Numbered from the stretch's first letter, positions 9,001-29,017 are shown. The stretch: 42,334 nucleotides of DNA from Puniceicoccales bacterium (GCA_031284265.1 JAITAG010000068.1:1-42334), one strand, 5' to 3'. Program-made: numbers and translations. The notes: generated by a model not told the origin, from the letters alone.

Positions 9001-12000
9001 TCAGCTAAGATACCAGCAATCGTTTGATTCCATTCGCTTTCTCCGATCTCATTGTTGTCAGCTACTCGATCTTGATAATCAAGGTAAGATTCATCCGTGC
9101 ATAATTTGACATGGTTTTTCAATGATTCAAAATTACTCAGAATGGCCTGAATGTTTTCCAAGCGATCTCCAACAATTCTTTGCTGCAATGTTCGCGGTGT
9201 ACCGTCAGCGGGCTCATTGCTTGTCAGTGCATTATCCACGGTTGTTTTTGTTTCTGCCAAGTTATAATTTGTAAAACTATTCAAAGCCGCCGTCAAAGCG
9301 CTCTGTGTCGTTGCATTAAAAACATCTCTCAAATCTAATTGATATCCATCAATGGTCGTGGCAACAGACGATAATATCGTCGGCAATGATTGGGATGTGG
9401 CAATTTCAATGGTACCATCAAATATGCCTAATAATGTAAAAATTTCGTGATACTCTGGGAAAATACCATCCTTTATATTTCCATCATTCAATGCATTCCT
9501 AATCGTTTCAAACGCCAGTTTTTCGTCATCATCTGGAGTAGCTAAAGCGCTTACGATAATGTAGCGCAATTGCTCTCGTATGTTCGGCAATATTAGATTG
9601 TTTACATAGTCTACACTTGCATTTTTTTCTTCATCGGACACTGACCTATTTTGTAAAATTCCAATCCAATCATCGCTGACTCCCAATACTCGTAAATCGT
9701 CTGCGGATAAACTGGAATTCCCATTCCATGAAAAAGTCATCAAAAAAGCATCATATTGTGTTTTCAAATCTTGAAAAAGTCCTTTTTGTGTCATATCTTC
9801 TGTCGAGTATCCGTTTGTTTTGAGCGATTGGGTCAAACTTTCCAATGTTTCTCTCATAGCTTCCATGGTACTATTATTATCAATAAAAAGGTTATACGCA
9901 TAGGTATTTACGACGTATTTCCAATAAGCATTGGCATATCGCTCATCATAGCTATCCATGAGATTTTCGGTAGTACTGACGTAAACGGGCGGATTAACCG
10001 TTCCACTCCCAGGATATTTTACAATTTCATTTCTTATTTCATTTATTGCATCATTATTCCAAACATAATGTGCCTCTTCCGGATGAAACTCTCCCGATTC
10101 ACTGTCTAATGCCGTGCCAAAAGGTGTATCACTTCTGCTCTCTGAATTATCTATTTGTTTTAAAAAGCCAAATTTCTCTTCAATTGTGTTGTCCTCAATC
10201 TCTAAACAATACAGATCAAAGTTAGCGAGTATGTATTTCAATTGATTCTTATTATTGCTAGAGAAATGATCTTTATTAGTAATTCCATCAAGTGCTTTTA
10301 AAAATGAATATTGAAATGCCTTTTGGCCATTATCATCAAATCCCGAATATGCTGAGGATATCACTGTTTTTAAATCGTTCCCATCCGCATTCTGCGCCCA
10401 AAATCCGTCCCAATCGATTATATCTGCTCCAAAGGAAGTAATGATTCCATTCGCACCATAGGTAACACTTGCAAATTTTTCTACAAACAGATTTACTGCA
10501 CCAATAATATCAGTATCATCACCAATCGCAACCCACGTGTCATAATCAAATTCGGCTTTTTGAAGGAAATAAGTGCTCGCCGGATGAGTGGCCATATCAG
10601 CATTCTGCGTTTGCAACGAATCAATTTCTTCGGTCAAATGCTGTATTAATAAATCTGTCATTCCAGGATCAGTTTCTTCGGTTTCATTTTCATCATAAAA
10701 CACGTAGGAGTTGGTGGTATTTTTATCATTATCGCCATCGTTATTTCCAAAAAGATATATGGACGATGATTCTGACTCCAAGTCAACGGTAGCAATTATG
10801 CTACACAAAAGCTCTTTGAGTTTCCCTAATTGATCTACCGTGCTTTTCAGTTCATTAAGTTCATTATTCGCAAAAGCCCTTCGTAATTCATCTACAACTT
10901 GATAACGGAAATTTGCCAGTATTTGATTCGCGTAGATCCCTAACTCTGCCTGATCTTCATTGGTAATGGTAATCGTTATATCATCCGGCAACCCCGTGTC
11001 TTTTGTTTGCAGTAGCACCGATACGTCACTTCCATCAAATGTCGCCTCACTTATTTTTTTTAAAAGTTCCGTAAATAATCTATTGAGTTTATTAATCTGC
11101 GTAGCCTGATCATTATTGTTAGATGTTGCTATAGCACTACAAAGATTAGTCAAGATTGTATCGAGCTCAGTTTGGGTATCACTATCATTCTTTTTTCTTG
11201 TTAATGTTTTATAAATATTTGACTTTAAACCTTCTATATAGTTTTCCTTGACAGCCGTTTGGGTCTCTTCGCTGTATTCTAACTCACCGACAGTTTTTGT
11301 TTCCACGTCAACTTCTATTGCGTTAAAAACATAATCTTCCGCCAATTGCCAGAAATTTTCCGCATCTAAAAGCCCTTTAAATGTCGCACTGGCAGCTTCG
11401 ATTTTCGATTGGATTCCATAGGCATATACCCCACCATAAATCGCCAATAGGGATAAATTGTCCTGCCCTACCAATTTTGAAACCTGATTATTAAATTCAG
11501 TCGTGAAAATATTACCCGTGGTATCAATGATGTTTTCTGTTAAAAAATCACTTGCGGCATAATCATTGCCATTATAACTGCCCAACTGATCGACGATATT
11601 GAGTACGACCTGATTATTGAAGGATTGGTATAATTCGAGCTCCGCCGTGATAAGGGATTGTAATTTTCCCACATCATTTGATGTTAAAAATGTTTCGAAT
11701 GTATTTGCACCAATTGTATTTTTGACAACGTAAAATTCCGTGGAATTTGCATTATCTTTGAATTTTTTGATACGAAATAATTGGTCATTTAATGTGATAG
11801 TCGTTGAAACATCATCCATCGACAAGTTAGCCCAATTTGGGGTACCATTACTATCTAATAAATTGTCCCCTTCGTTTGTCGTAAGTCCCTGTATTGTCGT
11901 TTGAGCAGTATTTATAGATAGACAAATTTCATTTATTTGATTGTGCAGATTCAGGTTATTTAATGAGTCGTTATAACTATTAATTAGATCAGCTTTGTTT

Positions 12001-15000
12001 ACGTCGGTGCTACTTTTGCTTAAGTTAGTGAAGGCAGTTTTATAGCCGTCTAAACCATTCAAATTTGGATTATTTTCCAATCCAAAATCGCTAACAATTT
12101 TATTATGGGCCAATACAAACTGGCTCATAAGCCACCGCGAACGATCATAGGCTTCATCGACCTGCTCTAGATTCCTATGAGCAATTTCTGCAACAGAAGA
12201 AACAGTTTCCGCAGGATTTAAACCCGTAGCAGCGATAGTACCTATGGCGTCATACAAGCTTTCAAATTTCAACTCCCTAGGAAGATTTTGCACATCGGTG
12301 AAATATGGACCATTTTCGGGCACAAGTCCTTCCTGGGAAGGATTTTCCGTTTTAACCGCGCCACCTACGATGCCTTTTAATGTACCATTTTCCGGTGTCG
12401 ACGTATACAATACACTGGAAAAACTTACATCGTAGGCAGTCCTATCAATCGCATCGAGTAAACTGAGGGCATCCGCTTTCGTAAGTGTAAATTTTCGGTC
12501 TTCCACATTCCCCAATTCCTCTCGATCGACAAAACTTCTTAGCGCCGTCCTTAGGTCATTCAATGGGATAAATTGCGATTTCCAACTGGGATACAGCTTC
12601 GTCAACAGATTGCTCAAAGTCATTTGTTTGTTTTGTTGTAAAATTTGAAGCAACTGTTGTAAAATTACCTGGCCATGACTCGCCGCTAGATCGGTCAATT
12701 TGTTAGCCGGATCATCTCCGATTTGTACACCGTTTTGGATGCTTGCCATGTATTCGGTTTTAAACTTTTCTTCCAAACCTGATAATGCGCTGTGCATATC
12801 TTGAAAGGACGTTATAGCGTCTGTAGCATTTATTGAATCCAATTTGAATATATTAATATAAATTCCAACGGTTGTTCCTTTCAATAGGGCAACAGCCTCA
12901 TTGTAGGCGCTTGCAATTTTATTGAAAAGGTAAACATAATAATCCTTTTCTACGGTATTTTGAGTTGTACTATCAAAATCTGAGGATAAAAGTTCTATGG
13001 GCTGCAATGTATTAATATTGTCTTTTAATGCACCAGCCTCACTTACTGAACCCATGTTTACCAAATTCGCCATGGTTTCATTTAAGGCGCTGAATTTTGT
13101 CCCATAGGTTTCAAATTTAGTTTCAGGATTATAATCCGCTTGGGTAAAAATTATTTTTAGGCTATTTTCCCCATCGGCTTCCCAACTCGGTAAAATTGCT
13201 TTCAAAGTTGCCTCATCACAATTACCTTTGAGCGGCAATAGGTTACTTTCAAAGGAACTGATCAGTGAATAAACCGCACCGCTGTCTTCTAAAAATTTAA
13301 TCAAACCATTGAGAATAATTCCTAGGCTTGGTCGCAATGATGCAAATTCTGCCTTTAACCGTTCATAGGATGAATTTCCCCCTTCCCTATTGACATACCA
13401 GTCGGAGTATTTCTTTTGCGCTTTTTCTAGGAAAAATGCAACTTCGATGTGATCTAAAATGGTCAATAAATCCTCGATCGCATTCCTGAGATTGGCCTCA
13501 TTGGTGATATTTCCCGTACACGTTGCGTCGATATTTATAGCGTCTATGTCCGCTCTGATGATATCCAGTGCATTTTTGATCTGCGTAAAAACATCGTCCG
13601 CAGTACTTGAATCGGCGTTTTTAAGCGTTGTTATTAAGTTGTTAGAGGGATTTACCAATCCTTTTAAGCCTGCACTGACAACATTATACGCATCAACAAA
13701 TTTGTTAACGGTATAGGCATAGCCTCCCCCATCCTCAAAAGTTTTAGTTGCAGACGCCAATCCATTTAAATCGTTATAAAGTGTAGTGTAGCGATCGGAT
13801 TCCCTCGGATCTATAAAATTCTTAAATATGCCATTTAGACTCTTAATCGATTCGTCATCCGATTGGTTAACCAATCTATAAACGGATTTCATTTGATTCT
13901 GGATATCTGTCTTTGCACTATCCGAAATACTACTGGCTAAATCTTCGACACCTTTTGGTATATAGGTATCGCTTTTAATCAGTGGATAAACGTTGGCAAA
14001 CAGGGTTAAAAGCGAAAAATCAATGCTATTGGAACTGATATATTTGGTCAGTTGTGAAAATAGGGAAGTTCCATCCGTATAGGGAATATGTTCACAGGAA
14101 ACGAGCAATTGTTTGAATTGCGATAACAATTCTCCATTGTCATATAAACCCGATGTCCTATAGGCTTCAATTGCATTTAAGATTTCTGCAACGGGAATAT
14201 TGATATCCTGACTGGGATCATATCCCGTGTCCACATACTCGACAATCCCTTTGGCATATAGATACGCTTCCGCTTCTTCATTATATTCTTTTTCTCCATC
14301 TAAACTGGTCACACTCGCATCGACCGTTCCCGAACCATAGAGTCCATTTTCCATGGTACGCATGATTCCATGGTCAATGGCCATGCTGTAAATTTTATTG
14401 ACTAGTACCTGGCGCTTGACCGCATCCGAACGCCATCCCGTAATCGTTTCATCCAAAAGATAAGTATTTAACTCTTTTCTAAAATTGTTGGCTTTGATAT
14501 ACTCCAACAACAAATCAATGATCTCCAATTCTCGCTTTAACACAATCTGTTCACTGCGTATTCCCTGTAAAATGGCCTCCGCGAAAATATCATTACCATT
14601 CGCCAAATCATTATATTTTTCGAGTAAATTCGTCAGCTCAACGCTGTAATCACTGATATCATATTTCCCTTGGTCTTTGTAACATTTCGCCCCATATTTC
14701 TCGTAGACATGAATATAATCTATTAAAAGCCCGGAAATATTTAATGCGGATCGATCGGCCTTGAAAAAGACGGAAAATAGATCGTATTGATTGTCCAACT
14801 TGGGGTGGCGATGGGATGTACCATCTTCAAACACGTAGGCTTCTCCATGAAATTGAAAGGATTGTATGGCATCGTAATATACGCCGTAATTCGTGCGCAA
14901 TTCTTCAATTTTTTCCATTAGAAGCGTGCCCACGTCCTTACTATTCCTCGCTTTAGCGGTTCCAAACCACCCTCCCAATAATTTTGTAAATTTCACAAAA

Positions 15001-17450: not shown

Positions 17451-17458
17451 TTTTTCAT

Positions 17459-17463
17459 CCTCC
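17459..17463 (-). promoter_or_regulatory. Shine-Dalgarno (GGAGG) of the giant ORF
   Basis: Plus-strand cctcc is GGAGG on the minus strand, 8 nt upstream of the ATG at 17450. Confidence 0.6.
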
Positions 17464-18780: not shown

Positions 18781-20883
18781 TTAGGTTACGGCAATTCTAC
18801 CCAGAGGTTGTATGGTAATTTCTTCGGTGAGTTCCTGGTGGGAGAGTACCGGCAATTCGTATAACTCTAACTCAATCAACTTGCGGACGTAGCGGCGAAT
18901 ATCCATGGAAGTGAGCAATACGGGACGGTTAGTTTCCTGTGTAAAATCCCCCACTTCTTCCTTTACAGTGGTGACGATTTTTTTCGCCGTATTCGGTTCC
19001 AATGCCAAATAGCTTCCCGCCGAAGTCTGGCGAATGGATTTGCGAATGACATCCTCCGTACCCGGATCCAATAGATAGACTCCCAAAATATTCTGTCCGC
19101 CACTGTACTTGTAACTGATGTAGCGCTTCAAACTTGTTCGCACATAGTCAGCCAATAGAATGGGCTCCTTTTCTTTCTGTCCCCAGTCGATGAGACATTG
19201 CATAATGAGGCGTAGATTGCGAATGGATACGTCTTCCTGAACCAGTCGCTGTAAAACTTCTCCAATCTTTTGTACGGGCAATACGCGCTGTACTTCTTTG
19301 ACCAATTCCGGGAAATTTTTCTCGAAATTTTCTAGAATAAATCGCGTTTCCTGTAATCCGATGAATTCGGAGGCATATTTTTTTAGAATAAATGAAAGGT
19401 GGTAGGTCAAAATTTGAGGCGATGTCATGTAATTGATACTCGCCTTATCCATTTGTGGGATGAGGCTTTTTGCGACCCATAGCGCTGGAATATTGGGTAA
19501 AAATGCCTTTTCTTCCTGATAAGGGATATTTAGAATGCCTAGACTTTCCTTCGTTTCGCGGACCAGTATGCTTCCTTTTAAAATACGCCCCTGGGAAACC
19601 GGTACCTCCTGTAATAGGATTTGATACATCCCATCCGTTAAATTTTCATTGAAACGCAGATGAATTCCGGGAAATGGTACGCCCAGATCGAAATAGAGTG
19701 CCTTTCGAACTTGGATCAATTGGTCATTGAGGACCATCGGGTCCACGGACTCTTCAATGGAAGTCGCCACATCGAGCAATAGCGGTACCGTAACCGAAAA
19801 CTCGCCTTTCTCCTCCTTAAATGTGGGAGCATTCGGCGCGATATCCGAAGGCAATCCGGTATTTTTGGCAACCTTAGTCACCTCACCTCCGCCCTGTGGT
19901 TTTCCCTCCGTTTGCATCAGCGAGCGACCGGTCAAAAGGATGAGCGTACCGATTACGAGAAAGGGAATCTTTGGAAATCCTGGAATGAGCATAAATCCGA
20001 TACTCATGACCCCCGCAATAACCAATGCCTTGGGCCGCGAGAGTAACTGTTTACCGATATCACTGCCGAGTGGTTTCGCATCACTGGAACTTACCCGAGT
20101 TACGATAACACCGGACGTAATGGAAATGAGTAGGGAGGGCAGTGTGGAAACGAGACCGTCGCCGATGGTGAGAATGGCATAGGTCGTGATCGCCTTATCC
20201 ACTGTCATGCCCTTTTGAAAGACACCGATAACGAGTCCAGCAACGATATTAATGGCGGTCATAATCAATCCGGCAATGGTATCGCCCTTGACGAATTTCA
20301 TCGCCCCATCCATGGCACCGTAGAGCTGGTTTTCCTGTTCCAAATCCGTACGTTTTTGCTTAGCCTGTTCCGTATCAATGCTTCCCGCCCGCAGGTCCGC
20401 ATCGATACTCATTTGCTTACCCGGCATCGCATCCAAAGTAAAACGGGCCGATACTTCCGAAACCCGCTCCGCACCCTTCGTGATGACGACGAATTGCACG
20501 ATGAGTAGAATGCCGAAAATAACCGCGCCGACGACAAAGTTTCCTTGGACGACGAAATCGCCGAAGGTGAAGATAATCTCACCGGCATCGGCCGTTAGCA
20601 AAATCATTCGCGTACTGGTAATATTCAGTGCCAGACGGAATAGTGTTGTAAATAGCAAAATACTGGGAAACGTCGATATGCAAAGTACGCGCGGAATATA
20701 CATTGACAGCATCAATAGGCTGATACTCATCGATAAATTGAGCGCCAATAACAGATCGAATAGAAACGTCGGAATGGGCACAATCATCAGCATGATGACG
20801 GCAACAACGACCAACGCTAAAAAGATATCGTTATATCTCGATACCGTTGCCAATAGGCTATTAAATCTCGTGCTAAAGCTCAT
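18781..20883 (-). CDS. sctV: Type III secretion export-gate protein SctV (LcrD/YscV/CdsV; FlhA superfamily)
   Basis: 700 aa with an N-terminal multi-TM region. Hallmark segments are FRLALNITSTRMIL, SARFTLDAMPGKQMSIDADLRAG and MDGAMKFVKGD. The C-terminus SMDIRRYVRKLIE...PVLSHQELT..IQPLGRI closely matches my recollection of Yersinia LcrD, favouring an injectisome over flagellar FlhA. Confidence 0.92.
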   Translation of the reverse strand: MSFSTRFNSLLATVSRYNDIFLALVVVAVIMLMIVPIPTFLFDLLLALNLSMSISLLMLSMYIPRVLCISTFPSILLFTTLFRLALNITSTRMILLTADAGEIIFTFGDFVVQGNFVVGAVIFGILLIVQFVVITKGAERVSEVSARFTLDAMPGKQMSIDADLRAGSIDTEQAKQKRTDLEQENQLYGAMDGAMKFVKGDTIAGLIMTAINIVAGLVIGVFQKGMTVDKAITTYAILTIGDGLVSTLPSLLISITSGVIVTRVSSSDAKPLGSDIGKQLLSRPKALVIAGVMSIGFMLIPGFPKIPFLVIGTLILLTGRSLMQTEGKPQGGGEVTKVAKNTGLPSDIAPNAPTFKEEKGEFSVTVPLLLDVATSIEESVDPMVLNDQLIQVRKALYFDLGVPFPGIHLRFNENLTDGMYQILLQEVPVSQGRILKGSILVRETKESLGILNIPYQEEKAFLPNIPALWVAKSLIPQMDKASINYMTSPQILTYHLSFILKKYASEFIGLQETRFILENFEKNFPELVKEVQRVLPVQKIGEVLQRLVQEDVSIRNLRLIMQCLIDWGQKEKEPILLADYVRTSLKRYISYKYSGGQNILGVYLLDPGTEDVIRKSIRQTSAGSYLALEPNTAKKIVTTVKEEVGDFTQETNRPVLLTSMDIRRYVRKLIELELYELPVLSHQELTEEITIQPLGRIAVT

Positions 20884-21269
20884 AATACTGCCTTTGTTTT
20901 AGATTTTGGACAAGCGATAGCCAGGCGGAGATCTTGTTCCTGCATGCCTAGAAAGTGGGTATAGGCGGAACGAGCTTCTGCGTCCCGTCCCAAAGCCCAT
21001 AAAACTTTACTCTTCAGGACAAAGAATAATTTATCCAATTCCTTTGATTTGGGGAGTGGTTCTGCCGATTGGAGGGCTTGCAATGCCGTATCGGGCGTAT
21101 TCGACTTCAATGCGGCAAAGGCGAGCGAAAGGTTGACGAGTGAATCCTCTGGAAAATATTCCGCGAGAACAAGCGACAGAGCAAACGCATCGTCGAATTT
21201 ATTATAGCGCAAAAAAAGGTAAATGAGAATTTCTAAAAATTCCTTCTGAGAATCATCCATAACATCCAT
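20880..21269 (-). CDS. Small helical-repeat (TPR-like) protein; positional analogue of the T3SS chaperone SctY/YscY
   Basis: 129-aa ORF whose stop overlaps the sctV start (ATGA). It has Ala/Leu-rich helix-pair patterning. In Ysc/Psc loci a TPR protein of about 115 aa (YscY/Pcr4) sits directly upstream of the sctV homologue. The assignment rests on position and composition only. Confidence 0.4.
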   Translation of the reverse strand: MDVMDDSQKEFLEILIYLFLRYNKFDDAFALSLVLAEYFPEDSLVNLSLAFAALKSNTPDTALQALQSAEPLPKSKELDKLFFVLKSKVLWALGRDAEARSAYTHFLGMQEQDLRLAIACPKSKTKAVL

Positions 21270-21278
21270 CCGATTCTC

Positions 21279-21306
21279 AATATAGTGAGGAATAAAAACT
21301 TTTCAA
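21279..21306 (-). promoter_or_regulatory. Candidate sigma70-type promoter of the TPR-like/sctV/giant-ORF operon
   Basis: On the minus strand: TTGAAA, 16 nt, TATATT. The -10 element ends 9 nt before the ATG at 21269, implying a near-leaderless transcript. A paralogous copy lies at 23537-23564. Confidence 0.4.
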
Positions 21307-21348
21307 CTTTTTATTTGTAAAAATAAAAAAACCATTGAAAATAGTTTA

Positions 21349-21382
21349 CTAAAAAAATGGAGATTTTTCATTAAAAATCTCC
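21349..21382 (-). terminator. Rho-independent terminator after family member G
   Basis: 10-bp stem GGAGATTTTT / AAAAATCTCC (21359-21382) with a 4-nt loop, followed on the minus strand by a T-run (ATTTTTTTAG). A near-identical copy lies at 23592-23615. Confidence 0.6.
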
Positions 21383-21438: not shown

Positions 21439-22518
21439 TTAAAACGTTTGATATTCTGGGGTTAAGCAAAAATATGCATCCACAAGAATAGCAATTAAAC
21501 CTCCCGCGACATTTAGTCCGTTACCTCGAGGCAATAAAGAACTCAGGTGCTGAGCACATTTTTGCGATACATCTTGAATAAAAGTACAAAAACTCGCACT
21601 AATAAAACCAATACATATGACACCATTGGCAGCATTATGATGAATAATAGCATTAACGCACTCCCTTACCTTTTGCATTAACGTTTCGCACCACCTCAGC
21701 AAATCTCGGTTTTGTTCTCGTAGCTCAAACTTTTCAGCGGATAATTCCTTTTCTAATGGAGTAAAATTTTCGTCTCCTCCAACTAATTCTTTCTGTAACT
21801 CGGTTTTTCGTTGCTCGAATGTCTTTTGTAGCTCATACATTTTTTGACAAAATCCTTCTACTAACACAATTTCTCGTTGACCAAATTCCTCTATCAACGC
21901 TGCTTTTTGTTGATCAAAATCGGCCTGTAATGCAAAATTTTGTTGAGCAATTTCTGCTTCCAACGCGGCCGTTTGCTGGGTAAACGTTTCTTGCAATGTA
22001 ACTGCTTGTTGGGCGAATGCCGCCTCCAATGCTTCTCTTTGTTCCGGATTGACGGCTAGCCATTCAATGGCTTGTCGGTTAAATTCTTCCATAAACGCTG
22101 CTTTTTGTCGATCAAATTCGGCTTGTAATGTGAGGCTTTGTTGATTAAATTCCTCTATAAATTTAGTTCTTTCTCGTTCAAATTCTTCCAGAAAACTTTT
22201 AAACCAATCAACTATTTGTGATTCGAACTCGTCCAGCAATGATGCCGCTTCTTGTCGAGTAGGTTCACCATCAAGTGATTCGAGTACTTGTTGAGCAAAT
22301 TGCATGTGCAATGCGTCTTCAGATGCTTGGACTTGTTCCAAGGCGCCTTCGAATATTTCAACATCCCCTACACAATCTCCCAAACATGCATTTAGCCGAC
22401 TTTGTTCCTGTTGGAATTTCTCTTGTTTTTCTTGCAATTCCGAAGCGTAACCCCATTGAATCCCTGGTATTTTAGCTATACAGAGCATTCCTAACATAAT
22501 CATTTTTTTCATATCCAT
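21439..22518 (-). CDS. Shared-leader family member G (359 aa): leader, hendecad-repeat body, C-terminal hydrophobic region
   Basis: Leader MDMKKMIMLGMLCIAKIPGIQWGYASE. The body is built of 11-residue repeats (xxxLQxxFxQQ). The C-terminus NGVICIGFISASFCTF...GGLIAILVDAYFCL is hydrophobic. Confidence 0.85.
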   Translation of the reverse strand: MDMKKMIMLGMLCIAKIPGIQWGYASELQEKQEKFQQEQSRLNACLGDCVGDVEIFEGALEQVQASEDALHMQFAQQVLESLDGEPTRQEAASLLDEFESQIVDWFKSFLEEFERERTKFIEEFNQQSLTLQAEFDRQKAAFMEEFNRQAIEWLAVNPEQREALEAAFAQQAVTLQETFTQQTAALEAEIAQQNFALQADFDQQKAALIEEFGQREIVLVEGFCQKMYELQKTFEQRKTELQKELVGGDENFTPLEKELSAEKFELREQNRDLLRWCETLMQKVRECVNAIIHHNAANGVICIGFISASFCTFIQDVSQKCAQHLSSLLPRGNGLNVAGGLIAILVDAYFCLTPEYQTF

Positions 22519-22634
22519 ATCGCTCTTCCCCCTATTTAACCTCTGAATCCCCGCTTAGGAAAACAATGATAATAATAATAAAGCTAAGCGAAAAAATCAG
22601 AAATTTCCAATTAAAATAATGACTTTAATTTTTA

Positions 22635-23507
22635 CTAGAGATTTATCAGCCTATTCAACCAAGACGGAGAGGATGCTGGAACAGACAACGGTTGCGAATC
22701 TCTACATTGTTGCAACTCAGCCAATCGTCGATTGAATTCCTCCTGCAATCTCGCTTCTTCTCGAATTAATTCTGTTTCTATTTCTTTTATCCGCTGAGTG
22801 TATATTCTTTGTTGTTCCCTATTTTGATCGCAGCGATCTACTTGCAATTTCTTTTTCTGTCGATCAAATTCTGCCGATATTTTATCGCTTTGCCGTTTGA
22901 ATTCCATTCGAAGTGTGTTTTTTCCTCGATCAAATTTTTCTTGTCTCTCGATTATTCCTTGATCAAATATTTTCTGCAATGCAGTTGCTTCTCGATTGAA
23001 TTCTCCCTGTAATGCATACATATGTTGGTTGAATTCTTTTTGTATTTCCGCTAGTGATTCATCCCCGTGTTCCGATAATGCTTTGGATGTTTGGTTGAAT
23101 TTTTCTTGCAATACAGCTGCCCGTTGATTAAAATCCTCATATAAGTTCTTTTTTGCGCGTTCAAACCATTCATCTAATTCAGCTACGCAGTAATTGAATT
23201 CTCCTTGCAATGCTGTTTCATATTCAGCAAATTTTTCTTGCAATGCAGCGTCTTTTTGGGTGAACTCTTCCCGCAATGCAGTTTGTTTTTGAAAGTATAT
23301 TATTGGCAATTCAACATCCTGAAAAGTTGCATCCCTTTGCAATTCAACATATCTTTGTGCGAATTCTTCTCGCAACATAGCTCGCCGCCGTTCAAACTCT
23401 TCACGCAACGCCGCTAATTCACCTTCACACGAAGCTTGACAATGTTGAATTTCCGGTACCGTGCTCGTACAAAGCAAACCCAATATGATCATTTTTTTTA
23501 TATCCAC
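22635..23507 (-). CDS. Shared-leader family member F (290 aa): leader plus hendecad-repeat body
   Basis: Leader (M)DIKKMIILGLLCTSTVPEIQHCQAS. The start codon is GTG at 23507, preceded by AAGGAG with an 8-nt spacer. The body has repeats such as ALREEFTQKDA / ALQEKFAEYET / ALQGEFNYCVA. Confidence 0.85.
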   Translation of the reverse strand: MDIKKMIILGLLCTSTVPEIQHCQASCEGELAALREEFERRRAMLREEFAQRYVELQRDATFQDVELPIIYFQKQTALREEFTQKDAALQEKFAEYETALQGEFNYCVAELDEWFERAKKNLYEDFNQRAAVLQEKFNQTSKALSEHGDESLAEIQKEFNQHMYALQGEFNREATALQKIFDQGIIERQEKFDRGKNTLRMEFKRQSDKISAEFDRQKKKLQVDRCDQNREQQRIYTQRIKEIETELIREEARLQEEFNRRLAELQQCRDSQPLSVPASSPSWLNRLINL

Positions 23508-23536
23508 AAACTCATCTCCTTAAAATTTCAATTCTA

Positions 23537-23564
23537 AATATAATGAGGAATAGATATTTTGCAA
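23537..23564 (-). promoter_or_regulatory. Candidate sigma70-type promoter for family members F and G
   Basis: On the minus strand: TTGCAA, 16 nt, TATATT. It lies in a segment paralogous to 21273-21390. Confidence 0.4.
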
Positions 23565-23580
23565 ATTTTTTTTATAAAAT

Positions 23581-23615
23581 ACTAAAAAACCGGAGATTTT
23601 TCATTAAAAATCCCC
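23581..23615 (-). terminator. Rho-independent terminator after family member E
   Basis: Stem GGGGATTTTT / AAAAATCTCC (23592-23615) with a 4-nt loop, followed on the minus strand by GGTTTTTTAG. Confidence 0.55.
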
Positions 23616-23739
23616 GATTCTTGTTAAAAAATTGATTAATAATGATTTTGGCTCTTACCAAGACTTCAATTTTACATTAATAACCTTTCACGAATTGGTC
23701 ATTCCTATAATTGGCGATAAAAGCTTTACAACTTTTTGT

Positions 23740-24234
23740 TCACCGGAGTGAAGCCTGCAGCTGAGGAAGCGGAAGCGCGCACTCAAACTTTTTCAAAAAG
23801 CATTTATAGCAATTCAGAATCTGCGTACCGCTTTTATCGAGTTCATTTCGGAGCTCTATCTTTTCTTCCAGCGATAACCTGCCATTAAGCGCATTTCTCG
23901 CTGTGTGCAAAGCTTCCGGATGCGCATTGAAGGCATCATAGATTACCAATGCACTTGCCAATAGGGCTGCGCCCAGGGCTTGTCCATCCGTAGGATTATT
24001 ACCAACGAGCTTATACGTATTATTGGCTATTCCTTGAATTAGACCCGGCAACCACGCGCAATTATTCTTCGACAAACAGTCAAGGAATGATGGAAAAAAA
24101 TTATTTCCATAATCATTGACTGGACTGTATCCAACCACTGGATAAGTTGCATCTTCTTCCCTATTAATTGTAGCCGATCCACCGAGTGATAATCCGCATA
24201 ATATCCCCACGCTAATTATTTTTTTTATATCCAT
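23740..24234 (-). CDS. Shared-leader family member E (164 aa)
   Basis: The track ORF starts at a TTG (24291). The family-conserved ATG GAT ATA AAA AAA start is at 24234, behind AAAGGAAAAGAT. Leader MDIKKIISVGILCGLSLGGSATI. Confidence 0.75.
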   Translation of the reverse strand: MDIKKIISVGILCGLSLGGSATINREEDATYPVVGYSPVNDYGNNFFPSFLDCLSKNNCAWLPGLIQGIANNTYKLVGNNPTDGQALGAALLASALVIYDAFNAHPEALHTARNALNGRLSLEEKIELRNELDKSGTQILNCYKCFLKKFECALPLPQLQASLR

Positions 24235-24316
24235 ATCTTTTCCTTTATTGTATGATTTTAACCAATTCGACAATCCTTTCGAACGTTGCAACTTAAAAAG
24301 TCAATGCGCTCGTCGC

Positions 24317-25144
24317 TTAAGGAGTTGCTTGTGTAGCCTCTTGAGCAGCATTAAACAGGGATTTGCCTGAAGCAATGGCCTGTGTAAACCACGTCCCAAA
24401 AACTAACGCAGAAGCTTTCAAGTGGCCTCCCAAATTCAAGAAGCCTCCCTTTACACAATTAAGCCAATTCAAGGCATTAGAAATATTTTTCATGAACAGA
24501 GTTATACCATTCGCACGGCCATACACGCCCCCATAGTAAAGAGGCAGACCAATAAAATGACACAAAACTGCACTCCCAATAACACCACCAATAGCCAGCT
24601 TGTGCCGTCCTAAGAATTCGGTTAAGATTTCGGCTTTTTTGCTTAAGAAGGAGCGTTTTTGCTCTAATTTTTCTAATGTTGCTTGACGTTCTTTGATTCC
24701 TTCTTCTAAATTTCTGTGCTCTTCAGTAAACATTTGTCGCAAATGTTCGAGTGTGCCTGTGATTTCTTCTCTAGTAAAAACTTCACACTCACGAACTCTT
24801 TTTCCCAATTGCATGTATTCACTTCCTATTGTACCGAATACATCTTTCATTATTTGATTTAATTCTTCACAAGTTCTTGCATTGCCAATGGAATCTTGTG
24901 CCTTTCTTAAAAAATTTTCCAGATCGGTTTCAAACTGGCTAATAAGTCTGCCTGCCTCTACCTGTCTTCTGTTCTCTTTCAGATTTTCGATTTGTCTTAG
25001 TGCTGCATTTCTAGCTCGTGCCTCAGCACTTCCAGTTTTTGATCTAGCACTTCCTGTTTTTCCTGATGCATTGCAACCATTATACGCTCCAATTGTTCCG
25101 ATTGCACCGAGCAATCCCAATATGATCATTTTCTTTGTATCCAT
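24317..25144 (-). CDS. Shared-leader family member D (275 aa): leader, helical body, Gly-rich hydrophobic C-terminal region
   Basis: Leader MDTKKMIILGLLGAIGTIGAYNGCNAS. The C-terminal region LAIGGVIGSAVLCHFIGLPLYYGGVYG...ASALVFGTWFTQAIASG is hydrophobic. Confidence 0.85.
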   Translation of the reverse strand: MDTKKMIILGLLGAIGTIGAYNGCNASGKTGSARSKTGSAEARARNAALRQIENLKENRRQVEAGRLISQFETDLENFLRKAQDSIGNARTCEELNQIMKDVFGTIGSEYMQLGKRVRECEVFTREEITGTLEHLRQMFTEEHRNLEEGIKERQATLEKLEQKRSFLSKKAEILTEFLGRHKLAIGGVIGSAVLCHFIGLPLYYGGVYGRANGITLFMKNISNALNWLNCVKGGFLNLGGHLKASALVFGTWFTQAIASGKSLFNAAQEATQATP

Positions 25145-25178
25145 ATCTTTTTCTTTCCTTTAATATCGTTAAATATCG

Positions 25179-26003
25179 TTAATAAACTGTTATCTCCGGT
25201 GGAAGGGATGTTCCGTAAGTTGGATTGTCGTTCAAAGCCTTATATTGTCTATCCGCTGCGACAGAAAGCTCATTTATGCGATCTTGGACTAATCTCCTGC
25301 ATGCTTCCAGTCTTACTTCTTCTGCTGCTGCTACTTGGTCGAATGTTTCTCTCCGCGCTTCAAGTTGCGATATAGCATAAGAGAATTGCCTTTCTTCGTA
25401 GCCGAATTCCTCGCGTTGCTGATTTAATTTTTCGGATTCTGTATGTAAATCATGGTATTCTTGAGCAAGATGTATGATCTGATTATTAAAATCATCAATT
25501 TGACAATTAAATTCTTCATTCAACTCTCCAAATATTAATTGTACTGTTCGTTCCACCTGTTCTTTACAATCTATAAATCCTCGGAATTTCGCATCCAAAT
25601 AAGCATCCAAATTTTGAAATCGGGAATATAATTCTTGCAATTCTGCATCTATTGCTGCTCGTATGTTAGCATCTATAAATTCCGGAGGTTGATTTTCCAA
25701 AAAACCCCACAAATTTTGAGATCGGCAACATAATTCTTTCCGTTCTGTTTGTATTTCTTTCCGTTCTCCATTGTCTTCTATTCCATTCAATTGATCTTCT
25801 AAAGTGTTCTCAAAATCCCAAAGCATCCGAGTCAATTGACCCTCCCGAACATCCACAAAATTCTGAAGATGATAATATAATTTTTCCAATTCTGCTTGTT
25901 CTTTGGGAGGCAACTCTATCTCTTCCGAAGCGTAACTCCATTGAATCCCAAACGTTCCGGTTGCACCAAGCAACCCCAATGTAATCATTTTTTTTATATC
26001 CAT
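25179..26003 (-). CDS. Shared-leader family member C (274 aa), acidic helical body
   Basis: Leader MDIKKMITLGLLGATGTFGIQWSYASE. The 5' UTR is conserved with member B (GTCAAATAAAGAAAG). Confidence 0.85.
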   Translation of the reverse strand: MDIKKMITLGLLGATGTFGIQWSYASEEIELPPKEQAELEKLYYHLQNFVDVREGQLTRMLWDFENTLEDQLNGIEDNGERKEIQTERKELCCRSQNLWGFLENQPPEFIDANIRAAIDAELQELYSRFQNLDAYLDAKFRGFIDCKEQVERTVQLIFGELNEEFNCQIDDFNNQIIHLAQEYHDLHTESEKLNQQREEFGYEERQFSYAISQLEARRETFDQVAAAEEVRLEACRRLVQDRINELSVAADRQYKALNDNPTYGTSLPPEITVY

Positions 26004-26048
26004 ATTTTTTTACTTTCTTTATTTGACAAAAAATTCGACTCTTCTCCA

Positions 26049-26615
26049 CTATCCTTGCAGGATTTCGTTGAGCTGACATATACGCGTGATGCAATCTTGA
26101 AACATACCTAACCACTGATTAATCTCATTGACATTAGTAGGATAACAAATAGTAGAATCCTTCGCAATATTTTTTATTTCATTGATTAATGTTAAGTATC
26201 GATCATGTAGACACATGCATTCCATTCGCAATTCTGCTATAGCCCCTGGTACTTCTGCAGTATTTTGATATACAGATTCCGATGCTCGTGTACCCTGCTG
26301 TTGCAATGCACTTCTTGCCCCTTTCAATGTTGCGCATATCAGAGACATATCACCTGAGCTTCTGACTTCATCCCAAATACCACAAAGTTGATTCCTAAAT
26401 TCGCTTAGCAGTCTAATTTGAGCACTAGCTACTGCCTGTTCACATTCTCCTTGAAAGTAGTCTTTACGTACTTGAAAACCAGAGAACGCTCTTTCTAATT
26501 CTTGATAAAAGTTATAACAGTTGCTCAACGTTTCTCCTGAAGCATGCCACCATTGAATTCCAAACGTTCCGGTTACACCAAGCAACCCCAACATGATCAT
26601 TTTTTTAATATCCAT
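26049..26615 (-). CDS. Shared-leader family member B (188 aa)
   Basis: The track ORF extends to 26714, but the family-conserved ATG GAT ATT AAA AAA ATG start is at 26615. That start also removes the overlap with member A. Leader MDIKKMIMLGLLGVTGTFGIQWWHASGE. Confidence 0.8.
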   Translation of the reverse strand: MDIKKMIMLGLLGVTGTFGIQWWHASGETLSNCYNFYQELERAFSGFQVRKDYFQGECEQAVASAQIRLLSEFRNQLCGIWDEVRSSGDMSLICATLKGARSALQQQGTRASESVYQNTAEVPGAIAELRMECMCLHDRYLTLINEIKNIAKDSTICYPTNVNEINQWLGMFQDCITRICQLNEILQG

Positions 26616-26670
26616 ATCTTTTCCTTTCTTTATTTGACAGAAAAACTTAGACTTCTTTCCTTTGATTAGC

Positions 26671-27255
26671 CTAGGGCTGCGGTAATAAATTGAAACGCGC
26701 GACACAATTTTCAAGCATCTCTAACAATTCTTCAATGTCAGTAACATTCAAAAAACGAATAGCAGGACTGTTAGCAATTTCTTCCATGTCCGCATTTAAG
26801 CATTCGTATTGCCCTCGTAGCCCTCGGTATTGCTGCGAAAATTCTAACATAAAATCAGTCATGGCGTTAAAATCCATTTGATCTACAGCTCCCAATAATT
26901 GCCGCTTTTGTTGTTGAAATTCAAATATTTTTCGTTCAATTGCTTCCAGTTCCGCAATAAGATGTCTATTATTTATTGGGTCTAAAGTGTTCCAATTGTC
27001 TAATATCCATTTCCAATATTTATCTTGCAACATAGTTATTCCTTGATCAAGGAATAGTCCTAATGAATTTTTCAATGCTTGAAAATTTGAAAACTCCTCT
27101 TCTAGCCTATGATAATGTTTCGAACATTCTTCCAATCTGGTCTTTATCGCTTCGTAGTCTTGGCTCGAATCCATAAATAAAGCATGCCCCCATTGAATTC
27201 CAAATGTTCCGGTTACACCAAGCAACTCCAACATGATTATTTTTTTAATATCCAT
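26671..27255 (-). CDS. Shared-leader family member A (194 aa)
   Basis: Leader MDIKKIIMLELLGVTGTFGIQWGHALF. The first 75 nt or so are nearly identical to members B and C. Confidence 0.85.
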   Translation of the reverse strand: MDIKKIIMLELLGVTGTFGIQWGHALFMDSSQDYEAIKTRLEECSKHYHRLEEEFSNFQALKNSLGLFLDQGITMLQDKYWKWILDNWNTLDPINNRHLIAELEAIERKIFEFQQQKRQLLGAVDQMDFNAMTDFMLEFSQQYRGLRGQYECLNADMEEIANSPAIRFLNVTDIEELLEMLENCVARFNLLPQP

Positions 27256-27273: not shown

Positions 27274-27301
27274 TTTATATTAATTATAAAACTTCTGTCA
27301 A
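27274..27301 (-). promoter_or_regulatory. Candidate sigma70-type promoter for family members A to E
   Basis: On the minus strand: TTGACA (27301-27296), 16 nt, TATAAA (27279-27274), about 18 nt upstream of the ATG at 27255. Confidence 0.35.
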
Positions 27302-27355: not shown

Positions 27356-28195
27356 TCACTTAAAATCTCTAATCGCACAAGCCCCAAAAGTTGGTTCAAC
27401 TTGCTTAGCATATTCCTTTAATACCCAATCGCCCTTATCGAGACAATAACTTTGCTTTCCAACCTTTAGAGTTCCCGGTTGTCCAACCTGAACATAACCT
27501 TCTGCTTTCATATTTTCCGGGTTACTTCTTTTATTAAAATCCGATCTGCAGTCACCCAGTTTAAGTATATGCCACGAAGGTATGTGTTCACATGAACTTT
27601 CAAATGTAAAAACTATCGGTTTTGGTGCCGGTGTTGGCGTTGCCGTTGGCGTTGGCGTCGGACGCGGCGTTGGCGTCGGCATTGCTGTTGGCGTTGGCGT
27701 CGGACGCGGCGTTGGTGAAAACGTTACCGTTGCCGTTGGCATTGGCGTCGGCGTTGCCATTGCTGTTGGCGTTAGCACCGGACGCGGCGTTGGTGAAAAC
27801 GTTACCGTTGCCGTTGGCATTGGCGTCGGCGTTACCATTGCTGTTGGCGTTGGCACCGGTGAGGACGTCGAATTGGTGTCCCCAAAACTGGCTCCATCTA
27901 GTCGTCCCAACGGTGCTTCTCTATTACGAAGAAGGAACATTCCTATTCCTATTCCTGCCGCTACTGCTGCGAACGCTGCAATTTTTGCACAAATTCCACA
28001 CCTCGATTGAGAATCCGATCGAGAATCCTGCTCATTTTCGTCATCAAAGTCGCTACCACGTCCGGGAGATCGGGTCTGTTGCCTACTATATACCACAAGA
28101 TCATCATTGGTTGTGCTACCTTGAATAGCATTAAACATACTTCCCGCTATCATAATAGCTGTTATACTACTTCTTTCTACTCGTTTTATACTCAT
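27356..28195 (-). CDS. Membrane-anchored Pro/Thr-repeat protein with a Cys-containing C-terminal domain (279 aa)
   Basis: It has an acidic N-terminal segment and a TM-like stretch (CGICAKIAAFAAVAAGIGIGMFLL). These are followed by about 100 aa of PTPT/PMPT repeats and a C-terminal domain of about 85 aa with 4 Cys. Confidence 0.8.
   Translation of the reverse strand: MSIKRVERSSITAIMIAGSMFNAIQGSTTNDDLVVYSRQQTRSPGRGSDFDDENEQDSRSDSQSRCGICAKIAAFAAVAAGIGIGMFLLRNREAPLGRLDGASFGDTNSTSSPVPTPTAMVTPTPMPTATVTFSPTPRPVLTPTAMATPTPMPTATVTFSPTPRPTPTPTAMPTPTPRPTPTPTATPTPAPKPIVFTFESSCEHIPSWHILKLGDCRSDFNKRSNPENMKAEGYVQVGQPGTLKVGKQSYCLDKGDWVLKEYAKQVEPTFGACAIRDFK
27702..27857. repeat. 2 x 78-nt tandem repeat (26-aa unit) inside the Pro/Thr-repeat gene
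   Basis: The unit ggacgcggcgttggtgaaaacgttaccgttgccgttggcattggcgtcggcgtt... recurs at 27702 and 27780 with 2-3 differences. Degenerate gttggcgt(t/c)gg units flank it on the left. Confidence 0.85.
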
Positions 28196-28222: not shown

Positions 28223-29017
28223 TTATTTAGTTATTTTTTTATAATATATTATATAAATATTTTTTTTATATAAAATAAAAAGATAAGCCAATCCTTCCTT
28301 CCATCTATCATTCAATTCTCTTAAATGTTTTCGAACATTGCCATCGGAAAAGAGTCCTCCGAAAATCGTTTCACATTTATGGTTATTATAAATATCAAGC
28401 CGGTTGAAAAAGTTTTTAAATCCACCAGGTAATTTTCCTAAAAAATTTCCCGTGTAGATATCATCGATAACAAAGACAGGAATTTTTTCCGTAGAAGAAA
28501 TCTTCTGAAATAAAGAAGATTTATCTTTCACTATTATCATCTTATCTTTTTCAACATATCGTTCTTGAATAACTTTGTCTCGAGGGTTTTCCAGCCAACC
28601 TGTCATAAGGCCTTTGGGATCCAAAGTTCCCTCCGAGGAGGATTCATTCTTATCACATGCTAAGCAAACTAATGCGACAATTGAGGATAATGTCTCTTCC
28701 AAGGATATTCGTCCTCCAGAAATTTCCTTTCCCCAATAATGATAAATATCCAGGCTCGATGGATCGCAACCAAGGTCAGTACATAATTTTTTTATCCAAC
28801 TTTGAATATCTTTACTTTCATTTTCTACGCTTAATTTCCGCCTGAAAAGTTTATGACATTTATTCATGTCCACATTTCGTTGCTTCGCATAGATTTCACA
28901 TTGACTTAATTCAGCATAGCAGGAATACGGCGCATTGCCCATAATGATTGCAACCATTATACCTATCTGTGAAGTTTTCATATCCATCTTGGATATTAAT
29001 TTATATAATTTTCCCAT
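28223..29017 (-). CDS. Hypothetical protein (264 aa; alternative ATG at 28987 gives MDMKTSQIGIMVAIIMGNAPYSCYA...)
   Basis: Long ORF with a hydrophobic N-terminus after MDMK. The ATGGATATGAAAA start resembles the family start. No domain recognised. Confidence 0.7.
   Translation of the reverse strand: MGKLYKLISKMDMKTSQIGIMVAIIMGNAPYSCYAELSQCEIYAKQRNVDMNKCHKLFRRKLSVENESKDIQSWIKKLCTDLGCDPSSLDIYHYWGKEISGGRISLEETLSSIVALVCLACDKNESSSEGTLDPKGLMTGWLENPRDKVIQERYVEKDKMIIVKDKSSLFQKISSTEKIPVFVIDDIYTGNFLGKLPGGFKNFFNRLDIYNNHKCETIFGGLFSDGNVRKHLRELNDRWKEGLAYLFILYKKNIYIIYYKKITK

Follow-up and report, generated by a model that had tools for sequence, protein, structure and literature searches.

Seven genes on the minus strand, here called A to G, stand head to tail at positions 21439-27255 of a stretch of 42,334 nucleotides (nt) of Puniceicoccales DNA (the window, which throughout means this whole stretch). 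The array adjoins sctY-sctV, the operon for the export gate of an injectisome (type III secretion system). It is probably a lineage-specific tandem expansion of helical proteins exported through the general secretory (Sec) pathway, in which the signal peptide would be maintained by selection and homogenised by gene conversion. An earlier note on this DNA had described the seven open reading frames (ORFs) of 164-359 amino acids (aa), their leaders, the GTG start of F and the position beside sctY-sctV, and all of this was found as described.

Gene A, 26671-27255, minus strand: 194 aa; leader codons 1-25 (27181-27255), putative cleavage between GHA and LF; helical body, homologue of B
Gene B, 26049-26615, minus strand: 188 aa; leader codons 1-25 (26541-26615), putative cleavage between WHA and SG; body homologous to A
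Gene C, 25179-26003, minus strand: 274 aa; leader codons 1-25 (25929-26003), mosaic, putative cleavage between SYA and SE; body a group of its own, with internal 63-nt repeats
Gene D, 24317-25144, minus strand: 275 aa; leader codons 1-26, putative cleavage between CNA and SG; coiled-coil-like body, C-terminal Gly-rich hydrophobic region from about residue 183
Gene E, 23740-24234, minus strand: 164 aa; E-type leader MDIKKIISVGILCGLSLGGSA, putative cleavage before TI
Gene F, 22635-23507, minus strand: 290 aa, GTG start; leader codons 1-25, putative cleavage between CQA and SC; body of 11-residue repeats, homologue of G
Gene G, 21439-22518, minus strand: 359 aa; leader codons 1-25, putative cleavage between GYA and SE; 11-residue repeats, then hydrophobic segments at residues 296-314 and 334-352

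Related loci and contigs were fetched for comparison and are designated by L-numbers, L001 being a second copy of the window array. A 7.2-kb Logan contig from run SRR14710909 carries the array with 100% identity to the window. On L001 a gene finder placed the starts of F and G at Met6 (4239-5096, 285 aa, and 5228-6292, 354 aa), losing the MDxKK start. The longer versions are favoured because codons 1-5 are conserved and AAGGAG precedes the GTG of F.

One leader on five groups of bodies

The degenerate leader pattern ATGGAYAYNAARAARATNATHNNNNTNGGNNTNYT, with up to two mismatches allowed, matched seven times in the 42 kb, at the seven gene starts and nowhere else (0 expected; 0 matches in 100 shuffles). 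Over the first 78 nt the identity is 94% for A/B, 86% for B/C and 81% for A/C, for which "about 90%" had been a loose estimate, and 42-74% for the remaining pairs. In every pair the similarity falls to background (~25% at the nucleotide level) past about nt +85, in agreement with the loss of alignment reported beyond about codon 27, and upstream it reaches just ~30 nt, into the Shine-Dalgarno region. The 5' untranslated region (UTR) that the earlier note had described as common to the genes, AAAGGAAAAGAT, holds for part of them: only B and E have the exact sequence, C and D have an approximate version and A, F and G have none. Two leader subtypes can be distinguished, E-type (MDIKKIIxxGxLCGLSxxGSA) and D-type (M[DN]xKK[MI]IxLGLLGxxGxxGxQNxCDAS). 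The leaders of A, B, C, F and G are D-type, so that the window contains six D-type genes.

The leader was examined by rule-based checks of the charge of the n-region, Kyte-Doolittle windows and the residues at -3 and -1, and its three-part anatomy agrees with the resemblance to a Sec signal peptide noted earlier by eye. The n-region MDxKK has a net charge of +1 in all seven proteins, and the best 10-residue Kyte-Doolittle window of the h-region (residues 6-15) scores 1.74-2.78, again in all seven. A small residue at -3 followed by Ala at -1, at position 21-26, was found in six of them (GHA, SYA, CNA, GSA, CQA and GYA). Lipoprotein signals were not recognised: the lipobox [LVI][ASTVI][GAS]C does not match, since Cys13 of E, F and G follows Leu at -1 and Gly at -3 (GILC, GLLC, GMLC) and comes after just 12 residues, and A-D carry Gly at this position. 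There is no twin-arginine (Tat) signal either, the n-region having KK in 7/7 and no RR(x)FL-type motif, and a Pfam search of the seven proteins gave no match to the phytoplasma SVM motif PF12113 at E up to 1. The leader thus resembles a Sec signal peptide of type I (signal peptidase I), from which we infer export. Codons 3-5 (nt 8-16) contain an A7-A8 homopolymer (ATGGATATAAAAAAAATG) in six of the seven window genes, for example at 25988-25996, and also in relatives (L036 from 516; L037 from 10001 and from 10387). It is a possible slippage site; its length is the same in the window and in the only other copy of the array (L001, identical).

This leader is rare. A 32-column profile made from the seven leaders gave 12 matches at E up to 1e-3 among 1.84 billion representative proteins: six are A, B, C, D, E and G themselves, three could be traced to the same island or to an E-like neighbour (in L011, L037 and L036), two are without known location and one is an unrelated repeat protein. 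F was missed because the gene finder had called it from Met6, and the E-type leaders of relatives fall below the threshold, so that the count is a lower bound. A pattern scan of species-representative genomes yielded 13 matches, 10 of them look-alike starts of unrelated proteins, such as MDMKKIIALGLLLATLQGC at the start of a Pseudomonas protein, and three true leaders, all in Puniceicoccales metagenome-assembled genomes (MAGs). Because unrelated proteins can begin in a similar way, for instance with MDMKKIIALGLL..., a match to about the first 12 residues is not diagnostic; a match to the whole leader is. Scans of metagenome contigs, once with SctY as protein query and once with the DNA pattern of the leader, yielded no family member, and in homology searches B found itself and A only, and E itself and one relative. 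SctY homologues are carried by MAGs named 'Puniceicoccales bacterium' or 'Opitutales bacterium'. The leader is therefore not a generic signal peptide, a possibility that the earlier note had left standing: it is absent from the rest of the window, and where the profile matches could be traced they are confined, bar one, to the island family.

Behind the leader, the bodies form five groups, {A,B}, C, D, E and {F,G}, so that the description of all seven as unrelated has to be dropped. The alignment of A with B spans both proteins from end to end (30% identity, E 9e-19), with a Smith-Waterman z of 9.5 after removal of the leader, and F and G are homologous with z 14 and E 6e-16. Profile-profile comparison with hhalign gave a probability below 1% between {A,B}, C, D and {F,G}, and the body of E had no convincing match to the others, in this case by pairwise comparison only. 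An ordinary duplicated family is thus recognisable within the two pairs and not between these four groups. The loss of homology signal is plausible because orthologues diverge fast, as described below.

All bodies look helical. F and G consist of an 11-residue repeat of the type xLQxEFxxQxx, detected by a repeat search and by autocorrelation (z 8-11 at lags 11, 22, 33 and 44), and missed by Tandem Repeats Finder. The tail of G has the two hydrophobic segments listed above, and D has one window above the threshold with Gly-rich flanks; A, B, C and F have no hydrophobic segment, and E has a marginal 19-residue window (86-104, Kyte-Doolittle 1.57). The AlphaFold2 model of G is all-helix with a predicted local distance difference test (pLDDT) score of 53, reaching 70-79 in the repeat region only, and a Foldseek search of this model against PDB returned generic long-helix proteins only (best E 0.29). 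The model of E, made from a two-sequence alignment, is unusable (pLDDT 42). No island protein, nor any small relative, matched Pfam or NCBIfam above cut-off.

Leader and body have evolved at very different rates. Non-synonymous (dN) and synonymous (dS) divergence were estimated from Nei-Gojobori counts:

A/B: leader dS 0.07, leader dN 0.05; body dS ~1.05
B/C: leader dS 0.38, leader dN 0.10; body dS 1.5
A/C: leader dS 0.54, leader dN 0.14; body dS 2.0
F/G: leader dS 1.50, leader dN 0.32; body dS saturated, body dN 0.75

The earlier note had offered gene conversion at the 5' ends or strong selection there, and proposed the comparison of leader and body; both processes appear, in different genes. 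The leaders of A-C (dS 0.07-0.54, against at least 1 in the bodies) appear to have been homogenised recently. In A/B at most one of ~15 synonymous sites of the leader has changed, against a proportion of synonymous differences (pS) of 0.565 in the body (binomial P ~8e-5, calculated by hand). This near-identity at synonymous sites indicates that the shared leader is young, with recent conversion or exchange of the 5' module as the simplest reading. The leader of C is a mosaic, its nt 31-54 being 96% B-like and 42% G-like, and nt 55-84 90% G-like and 73% B-like. In older pairs the leader is constrained, with dN/dS ~0.2 in F/G, A/G and B/G; synonymous sites have diverged and the protein has been kept, which indicates purifying selection at the protein level. 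An element acting at the RNA level in the leader was also considered and is disfavoured, since synonymous sites vary freely in these older pairs. The same asymmetry is found with relatives, where leader and body identities are 0.72 and 0.37 for E orthologues and 0.50 and 0.10 for D-type genes.

A hypervariable island between accD and sctY

The array belongs to a larger island that also includes two further genes between A and accD:

accD, 29164-30000, plus strand: left-hand boundary of the island
Island gene I264, 28223-29017, minus strand: signal-peptide-like N-terminus; family conserved across the clade
Island gene H279, 27356-28195, minus strand: signal-peptide-like N-terminus of its own, one transmembrane segment, Pro/Thr-rich tandem repeat
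sctY, 20880-21269, minus strand: tetratricopeptide repeat (TPR) assembly chaperone, 129 aa, NF052415 77.3 bits (cutoff 70); right-hand boundary of the island

In related loci the order is NamZ-NamZ-accD, the island, and then sctY-sctV, a gene of ~410 aa and a giant ORF, some of the contigs covering only part of the stretch from NamZ to the giant ORF. The spacer between accD and sctY is a hypervariable island. The number of genes in it is 0 in L031, L032 and L033, one in L024, three in L026, four in L012 and L011, 4-5 in L008, L035 and L037 (whose contigs end within the island) and nine in the window. By comparison with the window, SctV of the relatives is 82-96% identical (90-96% in the lineages that have genes with the MDxKK leader), SctY 61-95%, and the flanking DNA 76-83%. 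Island DNA cannot be aligned between relatives and the window, except for 78 nt of the E leader and its 5' UTR in L012.

The gene order accD-I-H-D-type-E is found in L008 and L035, and L037 has accD-I-I'-H-D-type. Because this order recurs in relatives, D and E are best seen as old residents of the island. A-C and F-G are expansions limited to the window among the loci fetched, so that the six D-type genes of the window compare with one or two in the sister lineages, the latter figures being lower bounds. Several contigs of relatives stop in or beside leader or island genes (L037 10387-10496; L008 1-234; L035 8400-8479). The repeated 5' modules probably break the assemblies, and for this reason copy numbers in relatives have to be taken as minimal.

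The search for homologues in related genomes, another of the earlier proposals, did find island counterparts with the leader, their bodies being mostly unalignable. The positional counterparts of D are L035_531, L008_629 and L012_615; the first two have 21% identity with one another, and in both the alignment with D ends at the leader. E has the sole body recognisable in sister species (32-51% amino acid identity by different measures). D-type proteins elsewhere have 82-629 aa, and nearly all end in Gly-rich hydrophobic segments, with the exception of L011_96. Signal-peptide features were found in H279, I264 and most of the 17 island genes of relatives examined, in families that differ in sequence; the exceptions are L008_629 and L012_615, without a -3/-1 site, and L026_387, without a charged n-region.

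Families H and I differ in how well they are preserved. The repeat of H279 (27666-27859) has 2.5 copies of 78 nt with 93% matches, and the relatives of this protein in L008, L011, L035 and L037 retain mainly the leader and the Pro/Thr tract. Family I (~265-295 aa) is the best conserved island protein, at 28-39% identity. It starts MxKLYKLxSxMNMKxLQI, has a C-terminal VIDDIYxGNFLG...IYxIYYK and no family match, and is duplicated in L035 (4383-5207 and 8400-8479) and L037 (6695-8610).

The addition of F and G has left scars in the intergenic DNA, among the following transcription signals:

Promoter-like TTGACA-N16-TATAAA, 27274-27301, minus strand: in the 100-nt spacer upstream of A, read by eye
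Terminator-like hairpin after E, 23585-23622, minus strand: a copy, with 91% identity, of the one that follows G
Promoter-like TTGCAA-N17-TATATT upstream of F, 23537-23565, minus strand: copy of the sctY-sctV promoter region
Terminator-like hairpin after G, 21359-21382, minus strand
Promoter-like site of the sctY-sctV operon, 21279-21306, minus strand: region conserved in the six related loci aligned

The 61 nt past each hairpin, toward F in one case and toward sctY in the other, are 77% identical to each other. In five of the six related loci aligned, the sctY-sctV promoter has the consensus TTGCAA-N17-TAT(A/G)TT, with TTGCAA as the -35 box. Judging from these copies, the F-G pair is an addition made by a duplication that carried terminator and promoter with it. 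The signals suggest three transcription units: A-E, from the site at 27274-27301; F-G; and sctY-sctV onward.

Origin of the array and competing explanations

Two pairs of bodies are homologous, and the orthologues of D are already unalignable in lineages whose SctV is 90-96% identical; most of the pattern is therefore accounted for by ordinary tandem duplication and very rapid divergence thereafter, and the diversified cargo described in the earlier note needs no separate origins. We propose that each gene opens with a conserved module, formed by the Shine-Dalgarno region and 21-26 codons, which would encode a cleavable Sec signal peptide (n-region MDxKK, h-region MI(M/I)LGLLG..., c-region ending in small-x-Ala). 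The mature parts would be all-helical, the ancestral D-type ending in Gly-rich hydrophobic segments that may provide a hold on the membrane, and this tail would have been kept by D and G; A, B, C and F are without it. To the old residents D and E, duplication in this lineage would have added A-C and F-G, the latter in a step that also duplicated the terminator and the promoter of sctY-sctV. The mature parts would diverge so fast that homology vanishes within the clade. The leader would be held by purifying selection, and short-tract gene conversion would have evened it out in the most recent copies (A, B, C and, in part, G). What was observed directly is the anatomy, the distribution, the scars of duplication and the pattern of substitutions; from the sequence we infer Sec export, cleavage, the transcription units and a role at the envelope or host interface.

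Several points weigh against this explanation. The Sec assignment comes from simple rules, the aligned site of B (WHA) has Trp at -3, and D has Lys/Arg early in its putative mature part. The leader is conserved far above what Sec export needs, which hints at a further constraint outside the model. Its confinement to the island is indirect, the search having covered the 42-kb window and representative proteins. The function of the mature proteins cannot be derived from Pfam, NCBIfam or Foldseek, which gave no matches, nor from the AlphaFold models, which have low confidence. Finally, the array always lies directly upstream of sctY-sctV, and F is preceded by a copy of the promoter of that operon.

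These last two points would favour proteins that are substrates of the adjacent injectisome (effectors, Inc-like or translocator-like), their N-terminus acting as a secretion or chaperone-binding signal. Type III effectors with a common N-terminal module are known, from 'terminal reassortment' to the Salmonella WEK(I/M)xxFF effectors and the chlamydial Inc proteins. The likeness lies in an N-terminal module on diverse C-terminal parts, in genes beside secretion genes and, for Inc proteins, in coiled coils combined with paired hydrophobic segments, which D and G may have too. The bodies are helical or coiled-coil and hypervariable. The C-terminus of D and G, and of D-type proteins in relatives, has 1-3 Gly-rich, moderately hydrophobic segments (Kyte-Doolittle ~1.5-1.9), which recalls secreted membrane proteins. 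However, the N-termini of those effectors are not Sec-like hydrophobic, and the window leader follows signal-peptide rules, with the classical charged n-region, hydrophobic core and small-x-Ala. To our knowledge, known type III signals are neither hydrophobic nor conserved in sequence. Furthermore, nearly all island proteins examined, those of distant relatives included, have N-termini that are unrelated and yet signal-peptide-like; the relatives with an empty island retain an intact sctY-sctV, so that the island proteins are not core components; the promoter in common is an ordinary sigma-70-like one; and the island has no chaperone gene. A functional link to the type III system would be based on position and the duplicated promoter only, and we consider secretion by this route unlikely.

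It is also unlikely that the leader is an uncleaved signal anchor, which would make these inner-membrane proteins with a periplasmic helical part, D and G being anchored at both ends. The hydrophobic run of ~15 residues (MIMLGLLGVTGTFGI) and the lack of a good -3 residue in B would fit, but the core is short and Gly/Thr-rich for a transmembrane helix, and small-x-Ala followed by Ser, 4-6 residues past the core, is found in six of the seven proteins and in most relatives.

A distinctly improbable reading makes the leader more than a Sec signal: a sorting signal specific to the clade, committing its cargo to a route of its own that is linked to the injectisome or to some other pathway directed at the host. 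It would be suggested by a leader conserved far past Sec need, by traced matches found only in an island adjacent to the type III secretion system and by the promoter copy of F-G. By analogy with Inc proteins, and with just as little likelihood, the array might then be a verrucomicrobial family targeted to host membranes, whose module was copied onto new bodies by recombination.

Two further proposals concern function and could coexist with Sec export. The D-type proteins might be peptides or toxins that act on membranes after Sec export (bacteriocin-like, or pore-forming by way of a glycine-zipper-like tail), the leader marking a common processing. The smallest members, of 82-123 aa, consist of leader, short linker and Gly-rich hydrophobic C-terminus (P0024, P0025, P0027, P0028), and GxxxG-like runs occur in L035_531 and D; but no glycine-zipper, bacteriocin or toxin family matched, the island showed no recognisable gene for immunity or transport, and the hydrophobic tail is absent from A, B, C and F, so we give this little credence. 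Least probable of all is a phase- or antigen-variation locus expressing one or few genes at a time like mycoplasma Vsp/Vpma/Vlp, which are clustered paralogues with conserved 5' UTR and signal peptide and divergent repeat-containing bodies (PMC5634654): the Shine-Dalgarno region and leader common to diverse repeat-containing bodies and the A7-A8 tract within codons 3-5 of most leaders recall it, but those proteins are lipoproteins cleaved at an AAKC-type motif and are switched through site-specific recombination, and the window array has no lipobox or other lipoprotein cleavage motif, the nine island ORFs contain no recombinase or other Pfam domain, there are no invertible segments or inversion-type inverted repeats besides the terminator palindromes, the genes are all co-oriented, each with its own ribosome-binding site, and the Logan contig of SRR14710909 shows no tract-length variant.

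A conserved signal peptide on divergent cargo is a well-known arrangement. The window family is homologous to none of the systems compared and lacks their defining sequence features. Conotoxin superfamilies, the textbook example of a leader and its cargo evolving at different rates, combine a highly conserved signal sequence with a hypervariable mature peptide after gene duplication; these are eukaryotic venom genes with introns and a propeptide, and no mechanistic or evolutionary link exists. In phytoplasmas, which are host-associated bacteria, effectors such as SAP11 and SAP54 carry the sequence-variable mosaic (SVM) motif PF12113, a presumed Sec signal peptide in front of unrelated mature parts (PMC8026896), and this is a comparable case of one conserved N-terminus on divergent bodies. 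However, it has no sequence relationship to the window leader (PF12113 unmatched at E up to 1), and SVM genes are scattered in mobile units, whereas the window family is one tandem array at a fixed chromosomal site. In addition, the window bacterium is Gram-negative and Sec export would therefore reach the periplasm only, unlike the SVM case.

What makes the array mildly unusual is its confinement to a single island beside an injectisome gate operon, a leader conserved past generic Sec needs and a visible mixture of selection and conversion. If the explanation proposed here is true, the accD-sctY spacer of uncultured Puniceicoccales would be a birth-and-death hotspot for exported proteins, and it would point to the genes by which this uncultured lineage is likeliest to make contact with a host or competitors. 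The array would offer a clean small example of two forces acting together on one module, the signal peptide being preserved by selection and made uniform by short-tract conversion, with a cargo that becomes unrecognisable as it diverges. The leader profile may also be of practical use, as a specific probe with which to find envelope or effector candidates in the clade.

Type III genes and other neighbours

The identity of SctY was settled by NCBIfam, comparison with PDB by sequence returning generic TPR proteins only. Its gene overlaps the following one by 4 nt:

sctV, 18781-20883, minus strand: injectisome export gate, TIGR01399 879 bits

The best solved relative of SctV is 7alw, 'Low calcium response protein' (803 bits), ahead of SsaV and FlhA. 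The scores against 7qij (408 bits) and against 6wa6 (302 bits), the latter presumably chlamydial CdsV, place it closer to Ysc-type SctV. An origin of the window in the Chlamydiae, which sctV and the GC content had at first suggested, was rejected on these scores and on the Puniceicoccales and Opitutales names of the homologues. In Ysc-type systems the usual gene upstream of sctY is that of its partner SctX (YscX). Among A-G there is no NCBIfam match to SctX above cut-off, and no SctX-like gene precedes sctY in the window or in the relatives with an empty spacer (L031-L033), so that the usual Ysc-type partner is elsewhere or missing. A second sctY-sctV locus is present in run SRR14710909 (L029, 76% identical to window positions 19677-21341) and also in the MAG contig JAITAK010000060, indicating that at least two members of the clade coexist in the SRR14710909 sample.

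Downstream of sctV and a gene of 412 aa, a stop-free frame of more than 5820 codons (3-17462, minus strand) runs off the start of the window. Its counterparts have 8377 aa in L024 and 9278 aa in L026, neither half having a Pfam match. On the other side, beyond accD, a protein of 690 aa (33425-35497, minus strand) weakly matches the model for VpdC, a Dot/Icm effector of Legionella (56.6 bits, far short of the cut-off of 1000). In L037 a gene of 691 aa, two genes past the NamZ pair, has a patatin domain.

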